Notes: generated by a model from the letters alone, not told the origin. DNA of 64,000 nt from Alphaproteobacteria bacterium UBA3864 (GCA_002393065.1 DGGW01000066.1:435-64434), one strand, 5' to 3'. Positions 482 to 50,385 are shown, counted from the stretch's first letter. A program made the numbers and translations.

Positions 482-1477
482 ATGTGTGTTGATTTTAAGG
501 AATATCATCGCGAATACTACACTTACCTTTTCGACCATATCGATGAATTCATCGCGTTGAAGGACGCGATCGACGCGACCCCTGAAATTTATTCGCATGA
601 CGGCGGCGGAACAACGAGTATTTTAAAAGGAAAATTCGAACTTCGTTTCGGGGGGTTGATCACGCTTTACGCGAACGGTCAATGGTGTGATCGGAAAAAG
701 AACGTCTTTCTGTATAAGATGTTGCAATGCCCGATGGGAAGCAAGGACGTTAAAGTGTACGGCTGGAACAACGAGGAAAAAGAATTTGACATATATTCCC
801 GCGTTTTTCCCGACACCGACACGCTGTTCGAACAAGCGCGGCTTGTCGCTCAATACAAACCGCAGACGGGAAAGAAAATAATTCCCCTTGAAACGCGAAA
901 CAGGTTGGCGGAGTTGTTTCAACCTCTGAAAGAATACACGCGCCATGCGGTTAACGACTTTAAATGTGTGGGCTTTGCCCGTCCGATTAACGGTCAAATC
1001 ACCGAAAAGAACATTCAAACGGGTGTTAAAACGCTGTTGGAAAATTGTGCGAAAGGACAATTGGAAAGGGTGAAATACGTCCTGAACAACTTCCCGCAGA
1101 TTTTCGGCAGGGCGGAAAGCAAAGACCTGCTTTTATCCGCCGCGAACGATTTGAGTATTTTGCGCTTTCTTTGCGATTGCGGCAAAACGGACGTTTCCGA
1201 CGCACCCGTTATCCGGAACGCGTGCAAGAGCAAAAAGGACGTTAAAGAACGTCTCGATTTATTGTTTGAACTGGGGGCGGACATCAATGCGAAAAACGGT
1301 GACGGTGAACCGCCGATCGTCGTTGCGGCGGAGGCGTTCAACATCAAAGCGATCCGCTGGCTTTTAAAGCACGGGGCGGACAAGACGGCGACGAACGCGA
1401 ATGACGAAACGGCGCGGGACATCGTTCTGAAAAACAAAGACGTTTTTAATTGGCGGGGAATTTTGAAACTGCTTTAG
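482..1477 (+). CDS. Ankyrin-repeat protein: an N-terminal domain of about 190 aa with unknown function plus C-terminal ANK repeats.
   Basis: A strong SD (AAAGGAGG) lies 8 nt upstream of the ATG. The C-terminus carries ANK consensus (LLFELGADINAKNGDGEPPIVVAA..LLKHGADKTATNANDETARD). Confidence 0.7.
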   Translation: MCVDFKEYHREYYTYLFDHIDEFIALKDAIDATPEIYSHDGGGTTSILKGKFELRFGGLITLYANGQWCDRKKNVFLYKMLQCPMGSKDVKVYGWNNEEKEFDIYSRVFPDTDTLFEQARLVAQYKPQTGKKIIPLETRNRLAELFQPLKEYTRHAVNDFKCVGFARPINGQITEKNIQTGVKTLLENCAKGQLERVKYVLNNFPQIFGRAESKDLLLSAANDLSILRFLCDCGKTDVSDAPVIRNACKSKKDVKERLDLLFELGADINAKNGDGEPPIVVAAEAFNIKAIRWLLKHGADKTATNANDETARDIVLKNKDVFNWRGILKLL

Positions 1478-1546
1478 CAAACGTCAGCTCCTGACGCATC
1501 ACTGTTTTAGAATATCCTTATCAACAATCGAAAAAGGAGAAAGAAA

Positions 1547-2398
1547 ATGATTGATATGAACACCGTTACCGACGAACAGGCGGATTATATGAACACGCCG
1601 ATGGAAGCCGTTGAGGAAATCGGAACGCTTTTAAACGAATTGGCGGCGTTTTTCCCGAATGAATTGGAAGACTATCTGGAAACGGATTTCTGCGAACGGG
1701 TGGCACGTCGTATGGTGTGGGACATTCCGGCAGGCTTTGCGGCTCTGCCCGAAAAGTTCCACGCGGTTGCGTTCCATCACGCCGTTCTGACCGATGATTC
1801 CGATATCGTCGAAGCCTTCCTTAAAGCGGCGAAGAAAGCGAAAATGAACATCGGCACCGACTTTTGCGATCCCGAATACGGCACGCCGCCGCTGATGATG
1901 GCGTGCTTTAACAAAGCCAAAAACGCTTTTGTTTCTTTGGTCGAAAAGGGCGGGGCGTCCCTGTCCGTCAAAGACGCTAAAGGACGCGGCTTGGCGTACG
2001 CGTGCGTGTTTTCGCATAATCTGGCTTTTATGAAGTGGGCGAAAAAGCACGGCGTCGTCTTTGATTTAAGCGATCCCGTCGATGCCGTAATACCTCTGGC
2101 GGGGGCGGAAGGCTCGGTCGCCGTTTTGCGCTGGCTGATCGAAGATCTGCACGGCGACGTGAACGCGGTCGATGCGGACGGCCGCACGGCGATGTATTAC
2201 GCGTGTATGTTCGGGGCGAACGACAACATCCTGTACCTGATCGACAAAGGCGCGTATCCGACCGAATTATCCGCGGCCGCTTTCGTTCCGATCGTTGAGA
2301 GGATCAAGGCACTGCGCGAAAAGGAACCGTCCGGCGTCGTCGATCTGGAAATCAAAAGCGAGATCAAAAAGCTGACGGACTTCGCGAAAAAGATCTGA
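1547..2398 (+). CDS. Ankyrin-like repeat protein; member of a tandem paralog pair.
   Basis: SD AAAGGAGAAAG. Contains an FHHAVL module, GTPPLMMA...LVEKGG and DADGRTAMYYAC motifs. It is clearly paralogous to the next gene. Confidence 0.65.
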   Translation: MIDMNTVTDEQADYMNTPMEAVEEIGTLLNELAAFFPNELEDYLETDFCERVARRMVWDIPAGFAALPEKFHAVAFHHAVLTDDSDIVEAFLKAAKKAKMNIGTDFCDPEYGTPPLMMACFNKAKNAFVSLVEKGGASLSVKDAKGRGLAYACVFSHNLAFMKWAKKHGVVFDLSDPVDAVIPLAGAEGSVAVLRWLIEDLHGDVNAVDADGRTAMYYACMFGANDNILYLIDKGAYPTELSAAAFVPIVERIKALREKEPSGVVDLEIKSEIKKLTDFAKKI

Positions 2399-2409
2399 CG
2401 GCTGAAAGG

Positions 2410-3255
2410 ATGACCATGTTTGACATGACGGAAAGCTTCCTGCCCGAAGGGGTGAAAAGAGAGCGGGCGCGGGTGGATTCCGAGCTGGCGGATCTCTTTT
2501 CCGACGACACGGTGAAGGCGTATAAAAACAGCCTTTTCTTTGCGGAACTCTGCGTGCGCGACGTGCGGGCACTCGTAAGCGGTTTTTTCGCTTTGCCGCA
2601 GGAACTGCGCGCGATCGCTTTCCACCATGCCGTTCTGATCAATCGCGCCGATATCTGTAACGCCGTTTTGTGCGTCGTCGCGACGCTTAAAGCGGACGTG
2701 AACACGGACTTTTCAACGGATGTGTTCGGGATCCCCCCGCTGATGACGGCCTGCGCCCGTCATTGCAGGCGTTCTTTTCTGGCTTTGGTCGAAAAGGGCG
2801 GGGCGGATCTGTCCGTGTGCGACGAACAGGGATACACGTTGGCGCGCGCCTGCGTTGAATCGGACGACCTGTCGTTTATGCAGTTGGCTCAAAAGCGCGG
2901 CGTCGTTTTCGACGCGGCCGATCCGGTCGATGCGCTGGTGCCTCTGGCGGCTAAAAACGACGCGTGGGGTGCCGTGCATTGGCTGATCGAAGACCTGAAC
3001 GGCGACGTGAACATGACCGACGAAGAAGGGTGGACGGCTTTGGATTACGCCTGTCGGCACGAAAAGAGGGCGATTTTCCTCTACCTGCTCGACAAAGGCG
3101 GAAAAATGACCGACAAAAGGGAGATTTTGTTCGGGCTGATCATCGAACAGATCAGGGAACTGCAGAAACGATTGCCGTCGGCGGAGGCGGACGATAAAAT
3201 CGGCAGACACATCGGCACGATGCGTTTTCTGATGACCGTCAGCGGCGGCGATTGA
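2410..3255 (+). CDS. Ankyrin-like repeat protein, paralog of 1547-2398. The true start is probably the ATG at 2416.
   Basis: Collinear similarity to the upstream gene (FHHAVL, GIPPLMTA..LVEKGGADLSV, WLIEDLNGDVN, DEEGWTALDYAC). The SD AAGGA fits the ATG at 2416 better than the one at 2410. Confidence 0.65.
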   Translation: MTMFDMTESFLPEGVKRERARVDSELADLFSDDTVKAYKNSLFFAELCVRDVRALVSGFFALPQELRAIAFHHAVLINRADICNAVLCVVATLKADVNTDFSTDVFGIPPLMTACARHCRRSFLALVEKGGADLSVCDEQGYTLARACVESDDLSFMQLAQKRGVVFDAADPVDALVPLAAKNDAWGAVHWLIEDLNGDVNMTDEEGWTALDYACRHEKRAIFLYLLDKGGKMTDKREILFGLIIEQIRELQKRLPSAEADDKIGRHIGTMRFLMTVSGGD

Positions 3256-3266
3256 ATTAGGGGGTA

Positions 3267-4265
3267 ATGATGCAAAACAAGGAAGATAAAGCGGAGCAGG
3301 GGACTTACGTCCGCTTCGCCAGAGTGTTGGATCTGGCCGTCAGAATGTTCGGACGGGGGCTGACGAAGGACGAGATCTGCCAAATCATGAAATGCTCGAA
3401 ACGGACGGCGGATCGCCTGATCGGCTGTTTTCAGGAAGTGTATTCCAACGGTTTGGAAGAATCTTCGAAAAACGGCAGGAAAACATGGAAAATCCTCGGC
3501 GGCGAAGATCTGCCCAAATCTTTGGAGATAGACGACGAAGATATTCTCCTGCTGAACAACCTTGCCGATTTGATGGCGCAACAGAACAGGGAAGCGGACG
3601 GCGACCGTCTGACAAAGATCCGCGCGAAACTCGTTCGGGCACTCGGAAACAAAGAGCGGGATCTGAACAATCTGGAATTTTCCGAAAGGAACGTCTTCCG
3701 GCCGGGAATCAAGGCTCAAATCGATCCCGAAATCGTCAGAACGATTCGTCGGGCGATCAGGGAAAAGAAAGTCCTCAATATCGAATATTACAATAAAAAG
3801 AGCGGGAAAATCAGCGAAGGCGCGCTCGAACCTTACGGCATTTTGTACAGCGATCGGGCGCAATATCTGCTGGCGCGCCACTGGGACGGTTATTTCGGCG
3901 ACGCGATCCATCAGTTCTTGCTGTCGAACATTCGTTCCGCCATCATGACGGACGAGGCGTTTGAAGGCGTCGATTTCGATATGAACGAATATACGAAAGA
4001 CTCTTTCGGCGTGTATCGCGAAGAACCGTACGACGTCGAATGGAAATTCAGCGCGAAGGCCGCGCCCGAAGCCAAAAAGTTCATCTTCCACCCCGGACAG
4101 GAAATCTTTGAGAACGAAGACGGCACGCTGACCGTGAAATTCCGAGCGGGCGGCACGCTGGAAATGGCATGGCATCTGGCGACGTGGGGAAAGCAGGTGG
4201 AAGTCGTACAACCCGCGGACTTTTGGCGGCGCGTCGCGAAAGCCGAACGGCAGCGGTGGCAGTAA
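3267..4265 (+). CDS. WYL-domain transcriptional regulator with wHTH-WYL-WCX architecture, BrxR/CapW/PafBC-like.
   Basis: SD AGGGGG. N-terminal HTH (LTKDEICQIMKCSKRTADRLI). WYL domain (VLNIEYYNKKSGKISEGALEPYGILYSDRAQYLLARHWDGY...FLLSNI). C-terminal WCX-like beta domain (GTLTVKFRAGGTLEMAWHLATWGKQVEVVQP). Confidence 0.85.
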   Translation: MMQNKEDKAEQGTYVRFARVLDLAVRMFGRGLTKDEICQIMKCSKRTADRLIGCFQEVYSNGLEESSKNGRKTWKILGGEDLPKSLEIDDEDILLLNNLADLMAQQNREADGDRLTKIRAKLVRALGNKERDLNNLEFSERNVFRPGIKAQIDPEIVRTIRRAIREKKVLNIEYYNKKSGKISEGALEPYGILYSDRAQYLLARHWDGYFGDAIHQFLLSNIRSAIMTDEAFEGVDFDMNEYTKDSFGVYREEPYDVEWKFSAKAAPEAKKFIFHPGQEIFENEDGTLTVKFRAGGTLEMAWHLATWGKQVEVVQPADFWRRVAKAERQRWQ

Positions 4266-4568
4266 ACTTTCGTTTGTATTTGACGGGTTAATCTGCCATA
4301 CTGTTTCCGTCAGCTTTTCTGACAGGGACTTCACAATCCCTTGCACAAACCGGTGCGGTTCAGAGATTCCGCATCGTCAACAAAACAAAATCTCCCGATC
4401 CATACGACCGGGAGATGGTGTTATGTTCAAGCATTTTGCCAAAAGCATCATGCCGTGTTTGTGCGGTTTGTGAACTCCCGGTCGCCAAGGGGAAAATCCT
4501 CCGGCGGCCGATTGTTTTAAGATTAACACTGTCGGGCGTCAAAACCTGACGATTTAAGGAATGAAAAA

Positions 4569-5573
4569 ATGAAAGCGGATTTATCGAAAGCTGTTCGGAT
4601 TATTAATAATCTGGATATCGATACTGATTCTGATCTTAACATCGTTGTTCAAGTCGCCAAATCTTTTGAAAAAAAAGAAGAAGAAAACAGAACAAAGAAA
4701 AAAGAATTTCTTCAAGCGATTGATGCGATTAACGGCTTGAAAGTCGATAACTCATACAGTTTTGATAAAGAATTCCGAGAAAATCACCCGATTTTAGGAG
4801 ATCTGGAAAACAATATATTTTTTGAAAGCCCTCTTTTTGAAGCCGTGCAAGTCGGAATGAAAGAACCGCAATATACGACGGCGTTAGGGTGGTTTTTACA
4901 AGAAGATCAGCAAGCCTGCCGGTTGTTTATAGAAACGCTCGCCGAAGTAGCAAATTTTCCGGAAGAATTTAAAAAGATATTACCGACTGAACACACTCCG
5001 ATTGAAAGCATATGGGAATATTCGGGTAAAAAAAATTCACAAAATGAAGAAGACGATGAAACGGATTCTGAAGGTAAAGAAGAAAAAAAAGCCGAGGAAG
5101 CCACATCCGAAACTTCTGATATCAGTGCCGGCAATGATGTGAAAAATCGCAAGGAAATAGACAATCTTTTGATTTGGGGAAGTGACAAGAAAAAACACGG
5201 TATCGTTATTGAAATCAAATTCGGTGCAGATTTGCACAATGAACTTCCATGTTATCAGCTAACAGCTTTAAAGAAGATGGGATATAATCCCTGCCAGAAA
5301 AATGAAAAACGTTGTGTTTTCCCAACAAACAGGGATTTGAAATGTGAAGATTGTCAGAAAAACAATTCTCTGATGTGCGTTGTTTTATCAACCAATCGCA
5401 TATCGGCTCAGAAAATCGAAGAGAACGACGGATGTCGAAAAATATGGCATAGGGTTTTGTGGTGTCATTTTATGCCGAAACTCAGTAAAAAAATGACACA
5501 ACATCAAGGGAATGGGGATTACAGGAGATTCCTGTCCTCGTTATGGCGTAAAGTGTTCGAAACTGAAGGGTAA
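4569..5573 (+). CDS. Hypothetical protein encoded in a strongly AT-rich segment. It carries a putative PD-(D/E)xK nuclease motif and a C-terminal Cys cluster.
   Basis: Codon usage and GC are clearly lower than in the flanks. D...EIK motif (LLIWGSDKKKHGIVIEIKFG). CxxC-type cluster (CQKNEKRC...CEDCQ). It lies directly downstream of the WYL regulator on the same strand. Confidence 0.55.
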   Translation: MKADLSKAVRIINNLDIDTDSDLNIVVQVAKSFEKKEEENRTKKKEFLQAIDAINGLKVDNSYSFDKEFRENHPILGDLENNIFFESPLFEAVQVGMKEPQYTTALGWFLQEDQQACRLFIETLAEVANFPEEFKKILPTEHTPIESIWEYSGKKNSQNEEDDETDSEGKEEKKAEEATSETSDISAGNDVKNRKEIDNLLIWGSDKKKHGIVIEIKFGADLHNELPCYQLTALKKMGYNPCQKNEKRCVFPTNRDLKCEDCQKNNSLMCVVLSTNRISAQKIEENDGCRKIWHRVLWCHFMPKLSKKMTQHQGNGDYRRFLSSLWRKVFETEG

Positions 5574-5577
5574 GAAA

Positions 5578-6237
5578 ATGGAAAACACGAAAAATTCTGA
5601 AATTTTCTCTAATGAAGAATTAGGAAAAGCGATCGAAACATACAATCTCTATATTGCAAACAGAGAAACTTTTAAAAAAGTTTACAATGAAGATTGTGAA
5701 TATGATGAAAACAAGTCTTTTATAGAAAATGCAAAAGACGAGATTAACTGTTATACGGCAAAAGGTAAAATAGAAACAACCGTGCCGGATGCAATCATGC
5801 TGGCCGCATATGTTTTTGAAAAAGCGGTTTGTCCTGTTTTGAAAGATAGGGAAATCGAAATTTCAAAGATACATTGGATACCAACGTATGGAGAAGATCC
5901 ATTTCCAGAATTTGATATAAAAATTGAGAATGAAAATTCACAAAAGCCTGTTTTGCTTGTCTTGGATTGCGAAGCTTTTCGCATTGGAGGAGCCTTTGTT
6001 GCAAAAGAAACAAAGAATAATATAACACTTGAAAAAATTTTTAAGGGTAAAAAAGAAGAATTTATAGATAAATCTGATGAAAAGGATTTATCAGAAAATA
6101 TTGTATTTTCAAAAAATAAATTTGAGTTTTCTTCAAATACTCCGCTTTCTTTGGATTGTTTGAACGAAAAAATCATTCCTCAAATCACAAAGGATTGTAA
6201 GAATTTAATAGAGGAGGCGTTCCTTCAGAATAACTAA
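5578..6237 (+). CDS. Hypothetical protein, AT-rich, operonic with 4569-5573 (4-bp gap).
   Basis: SD GAAGGG 6 nt upstream of the ATG at 5578. The ORF-track start at 5512 lies inside the upstream gene. No recognisable domain. Confidence 0.5.
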   Translation: MENTKNSEIFSNEELGKAIETYNLYIANRETFKKVYNEDCEYDENKSFIENAKDEINCYTAKGKIETTVPDAIMLAAYVFEKAVCPVLKDREIEISKIHWIPTYGEDPFPEFDIKIENENSQKPVLLVLDCEAFRIGGAFVAKETKNNITLEKIFKGKKEEFIDKSDEKDLSENIVFSKNKFEFSSNTPLSLDCLNEKIIPQITKDCKNLIEEAFLQNN

Positions 6238-6315
6238 ATCTTTTTCCGGCGGCGGGACGGACTTGCCGCCGGAATGATTTTTACGGTGTTCGAATCAAGC
6301 GTCAGGTTTTGTCGC
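6238..6315 (+). repeat. Copy A of a 78-bp near-identical direct repeat. It contains a GC hairpin (ccggcggc-N11-gccgccgg, 6246-6272) followed by a T-rich tract, so it looks like a terminator plus a conserved downstream leader.
   Basis: About 95% identical to 6833-6910. Both copies sit immediately 3' of a stop codon and 5' of a gene with a similar RBS context (TATGAAAGG...AAATG). Confidence 0.8.
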
Positions 6316-6367
6316 AGATACATGATATAAGGAAGATATCATTCAATCATTATGAAAGGGAACCGAA

Positions 6368-6826
6368 ATGAAAAATACGTTGTTGGACATTATTCAATCT
6401 TTTGAACATCCGATGGATTTGGATGATCAGGAAGTGCGCGAAGTGTTGGATTCGATTGATGATTTAACGCATCGTCAGATAAAAAACGCCGTTGAAGCGT
6501 TGTTGGATAAATACAAAAGTATTCAAAGAGGATATGAAATCAGAGGTGGAATACTTTCCAAAAAGATTGAAAAACTTATCCAAGAACTGGGAAAGAAAGG
6601 TGAAAAACTTTCTCCCGATTCAATAGAGGCAATGAAGGAATTTTTGGAAGAAGAAGGATACGTCGTCTACAAAAACGCTTCAGCGATTGCGATTGATATG
6701 GTCGAATTGCCTCTGAAATTGAGAAATGAGTTTCAGGCGGAAAAGAATCGTATGGGAACAATAACATACGAAAAGAAAAAAGGAATGGTTCTTGATGCCT
6801 TGAAAGAGTGGGCGGGCGAAGAATAA
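6368..6826 (+). CDS. Hypothetical small acidic protein (152 aa), AT-rich, bracketed by the 78-bp repeats.
   Basis: ATG with an upstream GAAAGGGAA. Clean ORF with no recognisable domain. Low GC like the two preceding genes. Confidence 0.5.
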   Translation: MKNTLLDIIQSFEHPMDLDDQEVREVLDSIDDLTHRQIKNAVEALLDKYKSIQRGYEIRGGILSKKIEKLIQELGKKGEKLSPDSIEAMKEFLEEEGYVVYKNASAIAIDMVELPLKLRNEFQAEKNRMGTITYEKKKGMVLDALKEWAGEE

Positions 6827-6832
6827 TTCCTA

Positions 6833-6910
6833 ATCTTTTTCCGGCGGCGGGGCGGACTTGCCGCTGGAATGATTTTTACGGTGTTCGAATCAAGCGTCAG
6901 GTTTTGTCGC
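6833..6910 (+). repeat. Copy B of the 78-bp direct repeat. The hairpin is at 6841-6867 with a G-U wobble-preserving substitution.
   Basis: Same sequence as copy A with three substitutions. The c>t change keeps RNA stem pairing as G·U. Confidence 0.8.
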
Positions 6911-6963
6911 GGGCGGGTGATACAAGGGAAAATATCGTTCGACCGTTATGAAAGGAATATGAA

Positions 6964-7667
6964 ATGACCAAAAAAGCGAAAGTGAAAAACTGGAGAGAGT
7001 TTTTTGAATCCGATCCGAAGGAACTTCCGTTCGCCGACATGAACGTTCGCGACGAAATAGGGCGACGATGCTGATCGGCGCAGCCCGTTCTTCCGCCGAT
7101 GTCGTGCGGCGCATCATCGATGCCGGCGCGGACGTCAACGCGGGGGCGGAGGGCAATTCGATAACCCCGCTGATTTGCGCCGCTGTCAACAGCGCTTATC
7201 CCGCCGTGATCAAAATGTTGGTCAAAGCCGGCGCGGATATCGAGGCAAAAATCAATCCTGAAGGCGAAGACCGCGGAACGCCTTTGCAGGCGGCGTTGGA
7301 AGCGAAAAATTTCAAAATCGCGCAGGCGTTGATCAAAGCGGGCGCAAACGTCAACGCAAAAGACGGTAAAGGAAGAACTCCTTTGATGATAACCGCTTGC
7401 CACGACGGAAACTGCGACATAATAGAGGCTTTGTTAAACGCGGGAGCGAAAATCAACGAAAAAGACAATGAGGGAAGAACGGCATTGATGCGTGCGGCCA
7501 AGTGGGAGACCCCCGATATCGTCAAACTGCTTCTTAAAGCCGGTGCGAACGTCAACGCTGTCGACAAAAAAGGCAAAACGGCTTTGGATTACGCGCGGGA
7601 AAAGGGACGCGACGAAATCGTTTTGCTGTTGGAAAAAGTTGTGGCAGGCGAAACAGCGGAGGAATGA
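6964..7667 (+). pseudogene. Ankyrin-repeat protein gene interrupted by a -1 frameshift near 7060-7068 (the pieces are 6964-7074 and 7068-7667).
   Basis: The frame-1 ORF ends ...DMNVRDEIGRRC*. The frame-3 ORF continues ATMLIGAARSS... and then 6 clean ANK repeats. Joining at g7062 restores the ANK consensus DEIGATMLIGAA. The break lies in a GGG run, so a sequencing error is possible. Confidence 0.5.
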
Positions 7668-7790: not shown

Positions 7791-7865
7791 TGGAGCGGGC
7801 GATGGGAATCGAACCCACGACATCAACCTTGGCAAGGTTGCGCTCTACCCCTGAGCTACACCCGC
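7791..7865 (-). tRNA. tRNA-Gly (anticodon GCC).
   Basis: The reverse complement reads gcgggtgtagctcaggggtagagcgcaaccttGCCaaggttgatgtcgtgggttcgattcccatcgcccgctcca. It is a cloverleaf with a GTTCGATTC T-loop and ends in CCA. Confidence 0.9.
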
Positions 7866-47400: not shown

Positions 47401-50385
47401 ATGGAATGGAAGGATATTATAGGCAAAACGGTTTATCATAAAGTTTTTGGAGAAGGAAAAATAAAATCTTGTGATGGAAAACGCATAGAGGTTAGCTTTG
47501 GCGTTGGAGAAAAAAAGTTTTTTTTCCCAGAGGCTTTTAAGTATGGAGATTTATATGAACGGAAAGATCAAGAACTTCTGAAACAACAACGTCAAGAAGA
47601 GGAAAGGCTCCGTCAGGAAGAGGAGCGAAAGGCTTGGAAACATTTTGAGCAACAACGACGGGAAAAGGAAAGACGCAGTCAAGAAGCGCTGAGACGTCGG
47701 CGGGAAGAGGAGCAAAAGGCCCGGGAACTCCGTGAGCAACAATGGCGTGAAGAGGAAAGGCGTCGTCAGGAAGAACTGAGACGTCGGCAGGAAGAGGAGC
47801 GAAAGGCTCGGGAACTTCGCGAGCAACAACAATGGGAAGAAAAAAGGCGTCGGCAGGAAGAGGAAAGACATTGGCGGAAAGTAGTAGAAAAAGAGCTGAA
47901 TAGTCCTTTGACCGACGAACAATGGGCCGCGATTTACAATGATGACGACGCGTCTTTGATCGTCGCGGGGGCGGGGTGCGGCAAAACGACGACGGCTTTG
48001 GGAAAAATCGTTTATCTGGTCAGGTCCGGCAAAGCGAAACTGGAAGAAATTTTACCGATTTATTTCAATAAGAAAAACGCTGACGAAATGAACGGTAAAA
48101 TCATAGATATTTTCGGGAATACGCAAAAAATAGCTTACGACTATCACAGTGTGGGCTTGAAGTTTTTAAAAGAATCCTGCCCTGTAGAAAAAACTGAAGA
48201 TATGATACGCCGGATATTTAAAGATTTTCTCGATGATAAAAAAAGCGAAGATTTAATCTGCCGGATTTTTGATTTCATCGTGCGATATATGTATACCGAT
48301 AATGAACGCACGATGGAAATGTTTCCGAAAGGCTTTGACGATTTGTCCGTTGAAAAAAAAGTTGAAGCGTTGGAAGATGATTGCGAGACGTTAAACGGTG
48401 AACGTGTCAAAAGTCCGGCGGAGGCCGTGATCGCGAATTTCCTGTTTACGCATCACATCCCCTATGTTTACGAGAAATGGTTTAAATCTTGTTATCCTGA
48501 TGCATATCCGATGAAACCGGATTTTTATGTGCCTTTGGGGGACGGAACTGATCCGAAACACGCCGTTTGGATCGAACATTGGGGCATTGAATTCGACAGT
48601 TACGGAAATGAACGGGCCAGATGGCTGGATGAAAAGGGGGAAAGGGATTATATCGAAGACAAGAAACAGAAGCTGGCGGAATATAGAAAAAACAATGTCA
48701 AACTGATCGAGTTGTTTTTATCCGATTTTAAAGACGACACGCTGATCGATAAATTGAAAACGAAATTGGAAGAATTCGGCGTGGATACAAGCCGGGGAAT
48801 GACCCGCGATGAAAGAATAAGGTATATTAAAAAACTGATTAAAACAAAAAAATTAGAATCATTTCAAAATTTTGTTCAACGGTGTATAGAGCTTTTAAAA
48901 AGCAATAAACACACATCGCAGGATATTCCTAAAATTCATAAAAACGCTCTTCGCGATTTGGAAAAACGCGAAATGGAAAGGGTGAAAGAATTTTACAGAA
49001 TCGTCTATTGCGTTATGAAGGAATACGAAAGACGGCAAGGGGAAGAGAACGGTATTGATTTTGCGGATATGCTGATAAAAGCGCCGGCGAAAATCGCCGA
49101 CGCGGAGCTTCGGTACAAATACATCATCATTGACGAATATCAGGATATTGACGAACTTGATTATGAACTGATTTCCGCAATTCAGAAAAAAACGAACGCG
49201 AAAATCTGTTGCGTCGGCGATGATTGGCAGGCGATTTATCGTTTCAAAGGGGCAGATCTTGGTTTCTTTTCAAATTTCGGGAGGTATTTTCCGAATTTCA
49301 AAACATACCGTGTTCAGCAAACATTCCGAAACGGCGCGCCGTTGATCGATATTGCCGGAAAGTTTATTCAAAAAAACGACCGGCAGTTAAGAAAGACAAT
49401 TCGTTCCGATAAAAGTACGTTCCTGAAGGCCGTCCGCTATCATGAATTTGAAAGCCGGGGAAGAGAAAAGGACGTAGATCGATTGAACTGTCTGTTCGAT
49501 ATTTTAAACCAGCCGGACAAGGATAATTTTCTTATCATCGTCAGAAACAATAGCGATTTTAACAAATATTTTGATTGTTTGGGCGAAGACGTTTCCAGTC
49601 TTTCGGACGTTGAAAAGGCTTTGCGGCGAAAGTTTTCCAAAAATATCGAAGTTCGGACGGCACATAGGTCAAAGGGGCTGGAATACGATTATGTCGTCGT
49701 TTTCAATACAGCCTGCAGAATGACGGGTTTCCCGTCTCTGATGGATGATGATCCCGCGATTTCGTTTTTGTTGCCGGAAAAAGAGGAGTATTCTTTGGCG
49801 GAAGAACGGCGGTTGTTTTATGTCGCTCTGACGCGGGCTAAAAAAGGATGTTATCTGCTTGTTCCGAAATTTATGCCGTCGTGGTTCTTTTTTGAGATTC
49901 AAGACGCTATCGGCAAAGACAATATCTTTGATTCCGACAACGCCTTGCTGGCTACTTGCCCATGGTGCGGTAGGGAAATGGAACGCAAACAAAGAAAGGA
50001 TGAAACAAAAGCAATATTTTACAGCTGTTCATCCTATCCCGATTGCAAGTATTCTGCGCCGAAAGGCTTTATCGTTAAAAACTGCGATGATGTCGAAAAG
50101 CTGATAAAAGAAAAAGCCGAAAAACAAAACAGACCGGCATCCGTGTATGTCTATGATGAACGGAAAAAAGAGCTCGACTTCATGGATTGCACGCTTTTTG
50201 AGAATGCGAAGGATAAACGCCCCGCGGACCGAAGCGTTGATGTTTATATCGTGATCAATGATGTAAAGAATTGTTCCGAAGTTAGAAACTTTTTGATAAA
50301 ATTAAACCGCGAACCCGTTTTGTTGAATTTATCCGAAAACGATATACCGGAACAATTCATAAAAAACGTTTTCGGAACGCTGTGA
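47401..50385 (+). CDS. UvrD/PcrA-like superfamily-1 helicase (994 aa) with N-terminal charged tandem repeats, an inserted Vsr/DUF559-like PD-(D/E)xK endonuclease domain and a C-terminal topoisomerase-type C4 zinc ribbon.
   Basis: Walker A LIVAGAGCGKTTT. Motif II IIIDEYQDI. Motif III CCVGDDWQAIYRFKGAD. Motif VI YVALTRAKKGCYLL. Internal nuclease region SPAEAVIANFLFTHHIPYVYEKWF...PDFYVP...VWIEHWGIEFD...KQKLAEY...LIEL. Zinc ribbon CPWCG...YSCSSYPDCKY. Low GC. Confidence 0.8.
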   Translation: MEWKDIIGKTVYHKVFGEGKIKSCDGKRIEVSFGVGEKKFFFPEAFKYGDLYERKDQELLKQQRQEEERLRQEEERKAWKHFEQQRREKERRSQEALRRRREEEQKARELREQQWREEERRRQEELRRRQEEERKARELREQQQWEEKRRRQEEERHWRKVVEKELNSPLTDEQWAAIYNDDDASLIVAGAGCGKTTTALGKIVYLVRSGKAKLEEILPIYFNKKNADEMNGKIIDIFGNTQKIAYDYHSVGLKFLKESCPVEKTEDMIRRIFKDFLDDKKSEDLICRIFDFIVRYMYTDNERTMEMFPKGFDDLSVEKKVEALEDDCETLNGERVKSPAEAVIANFLFTHHIPYVYEKWFKSCYPDAYPMKPDFYVPLGDGTDPKHAVWIEHWGIEFDSYGNERARWLDEKGERDYIEDKKQKLAEYRKNNVKLIELFLSDFKDDTLIDKLKTKLEEFGVDTSRGMTRDERIRYIKKLIKTKKLESFQNFVQRCIELLKSNKHTSQDIPKIHKNALRDLEKREMERVKEFYRIVYCVMKEYERRQGEENGIDFADMLIKAPAKIADAELRYKYIIIDEYQDIDELDYELISAIQKKTNAKICCVGDDWQAIYRFKGADLGFFSNFGRYFPNFKTYRVQQTFRNGAPLIDIAGKFIQKNDRQLRKTIRSDKSTFLKAVRYHEFESRGREKDVDRLNCLFDILNQPDKDNFLIIVRNNSDFNKYFDCLGEDVSSLSDVEKALRRKFSKNIEVRTAHRSKGLEYDYVVVFNTACRMTGFPSLMDDDPAISFLLPEKEEYSLAEERRLFYVALTRAKKGCYLLVPKFMPSWFFFEIQDAIGKDNIFDSDNALLATCPWCGREMERKQRKDETKAIFYSCSSYPDCKYSAPKGFIVKNCDDVEKLIKEKAEKQNRPASVYVYDERKKELDFMDCTLFENAKDKRPADRSVDVYIVINDVKNCSEVRNFLIKLNREPVLLNLSENDIPEQFIKNVFGTL
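47580..47880 (+). repeat. In-frame tandem repeat with an 87-bp period (29 aa, ELRRRQEEERKARELREQQW-type), 2 clean plus about 1.5 degenerate copies, inside the helicase gene.
   Basis: 47689-47775 matches 47776-47862 at about 88% nucleotide identity. Confidence 0.7.

Follow-up and report, generated by a model that had tools for sequence, protein, structure and literature searches.

The stretch of DNA considered here, which we call the window, comprises 64,000 nt from Alphaproteobacteria bacterium UBA3864 (GCA_002393065.1, DGGW01000066.1:435-64434). Our subject is a locus near its left end that holds, all on the plus strand, a gene for a 332-aa regulator of the WYL type (3267-4265), a spacer of 303 bp (4266-4568), and two genes that we name A (4569-5573, 334 aa) and B (5578-6237, 219 aa), with a gap of 4 nt between them. 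An initial annotation had presented the three genes as a candidate undescribed defence module, with the regulator as its first gene. The three open reading frames (ORFs) are indeed found at those coordinates, the narrow A-B gap is real, and a recount agrees that A and B are AT-rich: their G+C contents are 0.377 and 0.308, compared with 0.533 for the regulator gene, 0.574 for GlnE and 0.532 for the whole window, and at third codon positions (GC3) the values are 0.355 and 0.255, compared with 0.673 for the regulator gene and 0.668 for GlnE. The surrounding chromosome had been called high-GC, but at about 53% GC it is moderate. The AT-rich block is also larger than the two genes first described, as it holds a third gene, C (6368-6826, plus strand, 152 aa, G+C 0.379), an accessory cassette with its own promoter that is absent from some of the related loci. 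A longer form of B, starting at 5512, receives no support from the alignment of homologues. No source has a name for any protein of the locus.

The regulator gene does not directly abut A, as had been supposed, and the spacer between them contains an RNA-like element that had been overlooked. The spacer has a normal G+C content (0.47), and its length is kept at 303-312 bp across loci. Within it lies a structured core of about 200 nt (4321-4523, helices P1-P5), which ends 45 nt upstream of A and on the same strand. We found copies of the element in other loci by BLAST searches with short words, and the alignment of the element has 239 columns. The spacer core is the most conserved sequence of the locus, with 84-97% nucleotide identity to the copies in other loci, whereas in the same comparisons the WYL gene has 58-82% and A has 56-80%. 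Coding is excluded as the reason, because the two ORFs that could be proposed, one of 16 aa on the plus strand (4424-4474) and one of 60 aa on the minus strand (4360-4542), are broken by indels of 1-5 nt between copies. The element always stands just upstream of a gene of PDDEXK_4 type, which is A in eight loci and a canonical PDDEXK_4 gene in six others (L003, L019, L021, L024, L025, and L026); the L022 contig stops directly behind the element. A WYL gene is present within 3.5 kb of the element in all 14 element-bearing loci. One further contig, L020, has two partial copies about 1.4 kb apart (1-125 and 1475-1538), which hints at duplication within an island.

Compared with shuffled controls, the spacer folds unusually well on both strands (−91.7 kcal/mol, z −6.8, on the plus strand; −95.3 kcal/mol, z −7.3, on the minus strand). 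Transcription of the plus strand would start from a sigma-70-like promoter (4274-4302), with a −35 TTGTAT (4274-4279), a 17-nt spacer, a −10 CATACT (4297-4302), and a start that we place near 4309. All 14 copies have the signature of this promoter, even those of L003 and L021, whose upstream context is different; the −35 varies (TTGTAT, TTGTAA, TTGCCA, or TTGAAC) and the −10 takes the form (C/T)ATA(C/A)T, while the 17-nt length is fixed and its sequence variable. At the predicted 5′ end of the leader, a variable hairpin P0 (4309-4323, plus strand, GTCAG/CTGAC) shows compensatory changes, and its non-Watson-Crick pairs are G-U on the plus strand only. Then come P1 (4325-4338/4466-4479 and 4343-4350/4457-4464), P2 (4351-4358/4369-4376), P3 (4392-4400/4406-4414), and P5 (4480-4486/4503-4509 plus 4489-4492/4499-4502). 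If the two arms of P3 are called segments 1 and 2, and those of P5 segments 3 and 4, there is also an alternative stem that pairs segment 2 with segment 3 (4406-4414/4475-4483). The helices 1:2, 2:3, and 3:4 thus form a chain in which each one excludes the next. In the clade of L003 and L021, four distant and otherwise invariant positions change jointly (4397 G>A, 4409 C>T, 4480 G>A, 4509 C>T), and all three helices stay paired.

Two of these hairpins look like intrinsic terminators, one on each strand. On the plus strand, P5 is followed by a U-rich tract (4479-4519, −21.4 kcal/mol; the tract is GAUUGUUUU, or CGAUCGUUUUUUU in L010 and L013). On the minus strand, the complement of P3 forms a perfect 11-bp stem with a loop of 5 that is followed by UUUUGUUUUGU (4380-4416, −19.1 kcal/mol). 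For each strand, the fold taken by default is the terminated one, with −91.9 kcal/mol for the plus strand versus −68.8 when 2:3 is forced, and −50.8 versus −40.8 for the minus strand.

The 2:3 stem closes a three-way junction with two hairpins (4406-4491, plus strand) that resembles sRNA-Xcc1 (Rfam RF02221), and that excludes both P3 and P5. The spacer aligns to that model from end to end (positions 1-87 of 87) with 32.5 bits and an E-value of 6 × 10−4, under the gathering threshold of 53; the L003 element scores 30.6 bits. The 9-bp closing stem is paired in 99% of the cells of the alignment, and one C-G to U-A change keeps the pairing. In integron cassettes of Xanthomonas, RNAs of the sRNA-Xcc1 family precede symE, a toxin gene, and are co-oriented with it (10.1101/2025.06.18.660453); they are also found elsewhere on mobile DNA, according to the literature, ahead of an ORF6N gene in APSE phage and as five tandem copies in a Xylella island. 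The element described here shares with them the end-to-end junction match, sequence similarity in the 3′ half, and a location on mobile DNA, directly ahead of toxic or uncharacterised cargo in the same orientation. It differs in that the junction would be a minority conformer within a ~200-nt element that has P1, P2, and P5 as well, and in its company, since no association of sRNA-Xcc1 with a WYL regulator or a PD-(D/E)xK gene has been reported.

A short piece of sequence, GTTTGTGCGGTTTGTGAAC, which contains a direct repeat of GTTTGTG, is shared with marine and viral contigs (L017, L023, L027, L028, and L029). We rejected these as carriers of the element: they have 20-27 nt in common with it, no Rfam match, and are otherwise unrelated. 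In the viral contig L029 the shared piece lies about 30 nt before a ribosome-binding site (RBS) and an ATG. The sharing may be due to chance or to a short protein-binding motif.

The regulator had been described as having a winged helix-turn-helix (wHTH), a WYL and a WCX domain, and this holds. It passes the Pfam cut-offs for WYL (PF13280, 42.6 bits, cut-off 21.8) and for the WCX C-terminal dimerisation domain (PF25583, 42.8 bits, cut-off 23.9). Its HTH reaches 19.8 bits with Pfam HTH_23, below the cut-off of 24.6, and residues 15-80 align to the wHTH of DriD from Caulobacter crescentus, recognition helix included. The BrxR/CapW-like label finds no such support. The closest solved structures are those of the activator DriD (8TP8 and 8TPK, E-value 6 × 10−27, with residues 15-317 of the query against 24-327 of the 8TP8 chain), followed by further DriD entries (9PFQ, 9CU3, 7TZV, 7U02) and then by PafC (E-value 5 × 10−4); no BrxR or CapW chain appears among solved structures at E ≤ 0.01, and PADLOC offers generic WYL models only. 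By sequence, then, the protein is a full-length homologue of DriD, and BrxR and CapW are not its nearest relatives. What it shares with the latter is the wHTH-WYL-WCX architecture and a gene placed upstream, on the same strand, of a nuclease-bearing cassette; BrxR and CapW are repressors acting at their own promoters, whereas the predicted boxes described below show activator geometry at most promoters.

DriD is activated by single-stranded DNA (ssDNA), and reads the sequence CGxC-N7-GxCG through Arg37, Glu40, and Arg41 (PMC10853764). It binds in place of the −35, at a fixed distance from the −10 (PMC13004042), and its regulon includes recJ, dnaG, didA, and the endonuclease gene bapE. The likeness to DriD is extensive: the order of domains (wHTH, three-helix bundle, WYL, WCX) with homology over the full length, the form of the box, its position at −35 and its set distance to the −10, and an endonuclease gene among the targets. 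Even the driD gene itself has one box about 17 nt ahead of its start codon, in divergent arrangement, as A does here. The recognition helix reads KRTADR, where DriD has RRTAER; R37/E40/R41 of DriD correspond to R/D/R, so that both base-reading arginines are kept and E40 has become D. In the ssDNA pocket, Y168, R189, Y192, and Y240 are kept and R176 is replaced by K; about half of DriD's ssDNA contacts are changed, as detailed later. The targets are also different, being core repair genes for DriD, and ankyrin genes and mobile-looking AT-rich cassettes at this locus, where a structured RNA layer is moreover added at the nuclease target. An activator role is predicted for the regulator, and a repressor role is possible.

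Boxes of the DriD type are strongly enriched near the regulator gene. The 64 kb of the window contain five copies of the extended motif CGWCA-N5-TGWCG, when 0.47 are expected, and none of 100 shuffles reaches five. All five are intergenic and lie within the first 7 kb, inside the island. Two forward boxes stand to the left of the regulator gene, both on the plus strand. The box CGTCATCTTTTGACG (379-393) has TATATT (405-410) 11 nt downstream and is the predicted promoter of the ankyrin-repeat gene Ank1 (482-1477, plus strand, 331 aa). The box CGTCAGCTCCTGACG (1482-1496) has TAGAAT 11 nt downstream and is the predicted promoter of Ank2-Ank3-WYL, where the ankyrin-repeat genes Ank2 (1547-2398) and Ank3 (2410-3255) are both on the plus strand, and 11-nt gaps separate the three genes. 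Two other boxes belong to a regulatory unit of about 135 nt that is found after B and again after C, also on the plus strand, and in which a terminator hairpin is followed by a box, a −10, and an RBS. The first copy of the unit (6238-6372) stands ahead of C, with a hairpin (6244-6274) and T-run, a box (6300-6314), TATAAG (6326-6331), and an RBS. The second (6833-6966), 90% identical to it, has a hairpin (6839-6869), a box (6895-6909), and TACAAG, and precedes a 36-aa ORF (6964-7074) and the ankyrin gene Ank4 (7068-7667), both on the plus strand. Across the window and the related loci, a −10-like hexamer (TATAAT, TATATT, TAGAAT, or TATAAG) lies exactly 11 nt downstream of those boxes whose interior is T-rich, and the box motif recurs ahead of cassettes in 20 related loci.

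The fifth box, CGTCAAAACCTGACG (4537-4551, minus strand), is the one next to the nuclease gene. It ends 17 nt before the ATG of A, and is inverted relative to the forward boxes in every copy of the locus. On its minus side, 11 nt away, is a weak −10-like hexamer, TAATCT (4525-4520); the hexamers seen at this place in different copies (TAATCT, TACACC, TATATC) are all weak matches. We predict that this box serves a regulator-dependent antisense promoter. The alternative of a forward activator site that produces a leaderless mRNA for A was rejected, as an RBS-like purine-rich stretch follows the box in all loci, and the plus side has no −10 at the 11-nt gap. A candidate second box upstream of the leader promoter (CGTTTGTATTTGACG, 4271-4285) was also discarded, as it is not conserved in other loci.

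The initial annotation had taken the regulator as the first gene of a three-gene system. Predicted boxes stand ahead of every transcription unit of the island, the ankyrin genes included, and this points to an island-wide regulator whose regulon likely covers the whole island and not A-B alone. The regulatory unit that follows both B and C makes the island resemble a string of box-fronted cassettes, of which A-B is one. The same terminator-box-promoter unit is also present in L008, L011, and L018, and looks like a portable module that fronts successive cassettes. To the left of the window, locus L001 has two more boxes (541-555 and 1312-1326), before a gene of 201 aa and another for which Pfam returns a weak SprT-like match; with these, the predicted regulon reaches further than the window edge. 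We considered whether the GC-rich hairpins after B and C could be parts of an integron, and rejected it because they belong to the terminator-box-promoter unit; no integrase appears in the Pfam listings of the loci, and no dedicated search for attC sites was made.

What is A? At E ≤ 0.01, neither A nor B has a match in Pfam, NCBIfam, PHROGs, or PADLOC, and C has no usable one there either. Relaxing the threshold to E ≤ 0.1, A has nothing in Pfam but a spurious RNase_H2_suC hit and does not match PDDEXK_4 directly, and in PADLOC 2.0 none of the three proteins hits a component of a described defence system, nor does A hit PDC-S26. Profile searches of PDB sequences with A and B return nothing. 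An exhaustive profile search of 1.84 billion representatives with A produces 25 relatives only, and the distant ones (P0026-P0047, E-values from 3 × 10−23 to 3 × 10−4) reveal its ancestry. Five of ten that we scanned (P0027, P0031, P0033, P0041, and P0042) pass Pfam PDDEXK_4 with 29.8-34.6 bits (cut-off 22.3), and in PADLOC several of the distant relatives match PDC-S26 alone, with E-values down to 5 × 10−11. A and these relatives have the motifs HPILG, EPQxTxAL, RIDN, ExKF, and RxxLW in common, and the catalytic core of A aligns to a canonical PDDEXK_4 protein. From these sequence comparisons, A is a far-diverged PD-(D/E)xK relative of the PDDEXK_4/PDC-S26 lineage. Thus, a PD-(D/E)xK-like nature had been rightly suspected, and the view that the proteins match no described defence system stands insofar as direct matches are concerned, while the distant kinship of A to PDDEXK_4/PDC-S26 had been missed.

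The residues behind the suspicion need a correction. A motif D-x9-EIK had been proposed, and its EIK (E215-I216-K217) is invariant; the aspartate that had been counted, D206, eight residues before E215, alternates between D and N among homologues, and the invariant acid is D198, which 16 residues separate from E215. In 11 A sequences, E99, D198, E215, and K217 are all invariant. Adjacent beta-strands are formed by residues 199-205 and 208-217, and a helix (99-112) carries E99. With PDDEXK_4 (PF14281) and PDC-S26, A shares the core, namely ID...L and then ExK, F/Y and G, and other loci have a canonical member of that family in the place of A, following the same regulator and RNA element. A differs in being below threshold for both families, in its length (270-337 aa versus about 400), in having an acidic disordered insert and a variable Cys-rich one, and in always having B as partner. 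The first insert (residues 152-194, window 5022-5150) lies between core strands and the second (residues 228-270) has a CxxC; in some homologues these inserts vary or are missing. One distant relative of A, in L014, is preceded by a divergent HTH_3 (Xre-type) gene (52-261) and not by a WYL gene, so that the nuclease clade of A is paired with varied types of regulator.

B is less telling. Its predicted fold is a helical bundle, a beta-sheet, and a C-terminal helix, similar to DUF1054/YktB (PDB 2A8E and 3MQZ) at 12% identity and without a relation at the level of sequence, and DUF1054 is itself functionally uncharacterised. Weaker fold matches include immunity and chaperone-like proteins. Among viral predicted structures, B has no match at E ≤ 0.001, and a relationship of B to the ~237-aa gene that follows the distant relatives of A was rejected (hhalign probability 0.4%).

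Both families are rare. In a set of 5.8 billion proteins, the A family accounts for just 12 clusters at 90% identity, with 39-100% identity, and a profile search gives 13 for B. Of 185,579 genomes that represent species, a single one encodes A; it is a metagenome-assembled genome labelled as uncultured Alphaproteobacteria. Nine distinct loci have A and B side by side (the window, L003, L005, L008, L009, L010, L011, L013, and L018), and in eight of the nine, L009 being the exception, a WYL gene is immediately upstream. The outer flanks vary: type I restriction-modification genes, DUF2779/Cas4-like, RelB/ParE, PEGA, and a PtuA/AriA-like ATPase. The G+C content of A-B stays at 0.30-0.38 while that of the host varies locally from 0.39 to 0.53, and the WYL gene follows the host; the exception is again L009, where A has 0.46. 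In the window and in L003-L013, the GC3 of A-B stays at 0.23-0.36, even though the protein identity of A falls to 46-73% and the hosts differ in G+C. Such lasting AT-richness at synonymous sites suggests selection, for instance for low translation or for silencing, rather than a recent transfer.

In some loci the cargo is something else. In L019, L024, L025, and L026, a WYL gene with about 72% protein identity is followed by a canonical PDDEXK_4 gene of 397-398 aa together with unrelated partners. The canonical proteins score 73.6-82.6 bits with Pfam PDDEXK_4, and the copy in L026 matches PDC-S26 with an E-value of 2.6 × 10−26. As the same WYL gene can precede either A-B or a canonical PDDEXK_4 gene, the cargo position swaps between two branches of one nuclease superfamily. 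Judged from the sequences, the constant unit is the WYL gene with its structured spacer, and the cargo behind it is what changes. The observation behind the initial annotation is confirmed; the description of it as a self-contained three-gene system gives way to that of a swappable cassette within a DriD-like regulon.

We propose that A-B is one cassette of a variable island regulated by a DriD-type factor, and that the RNA leader gates an inducible suicide or defence nuclease; we give this reading a probability of about one half. A constitutive sigma-70-type promoter would send a leader of about 210 nt across the element. By default the leader would adopt the 1:2 plus 3:4 fold, and transcription would stop at the 3:4 hairpin and U-tract before reaching A, leaving A-B off. 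The regulator would sense a ligand, most probably single-stranded nucleic acid arising from DNA damage or phage replication, as DriD and CapW do, upon which the promoters with forward boxes would fire. At the inverted box, the regulator would also fire a promoter on the minus strand, and produce an antisense RNA of about 130 nt over segments 4 to 1. The leader, while still being made, could then be moved off the terminator state by pairing with this RNA or by the regulator, which would permit read-through into A-B. A would cut DNA, and B would be a non-enzymatic partner that restrains or targets A. By analogy with the DriD-controlled bapE product BapE and with WYL-controlled defence operons, a role as inducible suicide or defence nuclease is the most likely one for A; a defence function of the cassette is plausible.

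The scheme has parallels in countertranscript-driven transcription attenuation (pT181, pIP501) and in type I toxin-antitoxin pairs such as SymR/symE. There too, chained alternative helices end in a terminator, the gene product is kept low, and a convergent promoter yields a short, fully complementary RNA over the leader. The antisense RNA of such systems is made constitutively and inhibits, whereas here it is predicted to be induced by the regulator, and its effect could be in either direction. A bolder extension, which we regard as doubtful, is that the element represents a new class of riboregulators gating suicide or defence nucleases, in which a countertranscript, made when an ssDNA-sensing WYL factor acts at the inverted box, frees a terminated leader, and which is a distant, extended relative of sRNA-Xcc1.

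A number of observations weigh against the proposal of a DriD-regulated, RNA-gated nuclease. The antisense RNA is only predicted, as are the two promoters and the two terminators; the −10 on the minus side is weak (3-4 of 6 positions), and on the plus strand the U-tract begins 4-5 nt beyond the stem. On the plus strand, forcing the 2:3 pairing costs 23 kcal/mol relative to the default fold, so that a switch needs a strong driver. As for covariation, the four joint changes amount to one evolutionary event, in the L003/L021 clade, which makes them suggestive and not a statistical proof, and P1, P2, and P4 never vary, so that for these helices the alignment provides neither support nor refutation. 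The strand signal from G-U pairs is mixed, pointing to the plus strand in P0, P2, P5b, and the inner Xcc1-like hairpin, and to the minus strand in P3. In the ssDNA pocket of the regulator, the residues S172K, R178S, R204H, W206F, R207L, and R288L are changed relative to DriD, and since R178S, R204H, R207L, and R288L fall on DriD's ssDNA contacts, the ligand is uncertain; a nucleic acid is likely, its exact nature less clear. The element is not required for A-B: in L003 the WYL-A-B arrangement has a 97-bp spacer without the element, which precedes the canonical gene instead, and L009 has neither the element nor an adjacent WYL gene, and a plain forward box drives its A. The loci all belong to a single narrow lineage in which synteny may be inherited and not selected, and this makes the co-occurrence of cargo and regulator, which had been named as a check and is indeed found, weak evidence for a functional linkage. 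Finally, no defence or toxicity phenotype is known either for PDC-S26 or for this cassette, and PDC-S26, listed by PADLOC as a single-gene candidate, is not known to have been validated.

What else could the locus be? If the spacer were conserved as DNA only, as a dense array of promoters and operators for the regulator and RNA polymerase, the RNA folds and the likeness to sRNA-Xcc1 would be incidental. The promoter and box that lie within the spacer, the invariance of most helices, which are hence without covariation, and the Rfam score under the gathering threshold all agree with this. Yet near-invariance over about 200 nt far exceeds what a promoter and a 15-bp box need, both of which are outside the conserved core, and a purely DNA role leaves unaccounted for the fold z-scores of about −7, the four distant positions that change together while three helices are preserved, and the covariation of P0 with its strand-specific G-U pairs. 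We thus hold a DNA-only spacer to be rather improbable. We judge similarly improbable a module of toxin-antitoxin or addiction type that would stabilise the island, with A as the toxin and either B as the antitoxin or the structured RNA and its antisense as an RNA antitoxin like SymR for symE. Type I systems typically have convergent promoters across the leader of the toxin, the 4-nt gap couples A and B tightly, and B, presumably non-enzymatic, has immunity and chaperone-like proteins among its weaker fold matches. The position of sRNA-Xcc1 upstream of symE (10.1101/2025.06.18.660453) also speaks for such a module. But no toxin-antitoxin family is matched in Pfam, NCBIfam, PHROGs, or PADLOC, the A-B loci of L003 and L009 do without the element, and a dedicated signal-sensing regulator with its boxes points to induced expression, not to a constitutive balance.

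A DNA-damage module that is not directed against phages is the rival to be taken most seriously, although we still consider it unlikely. Here the regulator would control a lineage-specific, DriD-type regulon independent of SOS, with A as a repair nuclease or a BapE-like nuclease of self-destruction, and B as its modulator. DriD is the protein closest to the regulator, its own regulon has recJ, dnaG, didA, and bapE, and the geometry of the boxes agrees with that of DriD promoters. One would expect a core damage response to occur widely and to match its host in composition, and the cassette is instead AT-rich, rare (the 12 clusters in 5.8 billion), and swappable with a PADLOC defence candidate, and its neighbours are restriction-modification, toxin-antitoxin, ATPase, and ankyrin genes, not repair genes. 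The damage and defence readings are not exclusive but compatible, as CapW-type regulators also use ssDNA as the signal for inducing defence (PMC11662680). Very improbable, finally, is an island for interaction with a host, in which the ankyrin proteins and A would be secreted effectors and B the secretion chaperone of A.

WYL regulators are known for switching defence or damage genes at the initiation of transcription. The locus suggests a second, RNA-based layer of safety, under stricter conservation than the proteins themselves, and such a structured RNA layer in front of a nuclease is previously unreported. If the element is such a gating leader and also a relative of sRNA-Xcc1, that orphan family would gain its first mechanistic role, that of a leader switch for toxin genes. 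The locus would join topics until now separate, namely ssDNA sensing of the DriD type, the candidate nucleases of PDDEXK_4/PDC-S26, and the orphan sRNA-Xcc1 class, and it indicates that a DriD-like regulon can ride on, and control, an island of swappable gene cassettes. The system is also compact, about 3 kb, and can be synthesised.

A few features of the neighbourhood complete the description. The 3′ end of a tRNA-Gly(GCC) gene (7791-7865, minus strand) points towards the island, which is the usual side of integration; there is no integrase within 9.6 kb, and no att-like repeat of its 3′ end of at least 12 nt in the 9.6 kb to its left. Ankyrin-repeat genes crowd these islands, at 482-3255 and 7068-7667 in the window, and also in L003, L005, L008, and L021, with proteins of up to 1024 aa in L008. 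Several of them stand behind DriD-type boxes, which would place them under a regulator of the damage or ssDNA type. Far from the island, the window has a second AT-rich patch (47401-50385, G+C 0.39-0.44), without a DriD-type box, that encodes a UvrD-like helicase of 994 aa with a Top1-type zinc ribbon, and this gene may be another acquired one.

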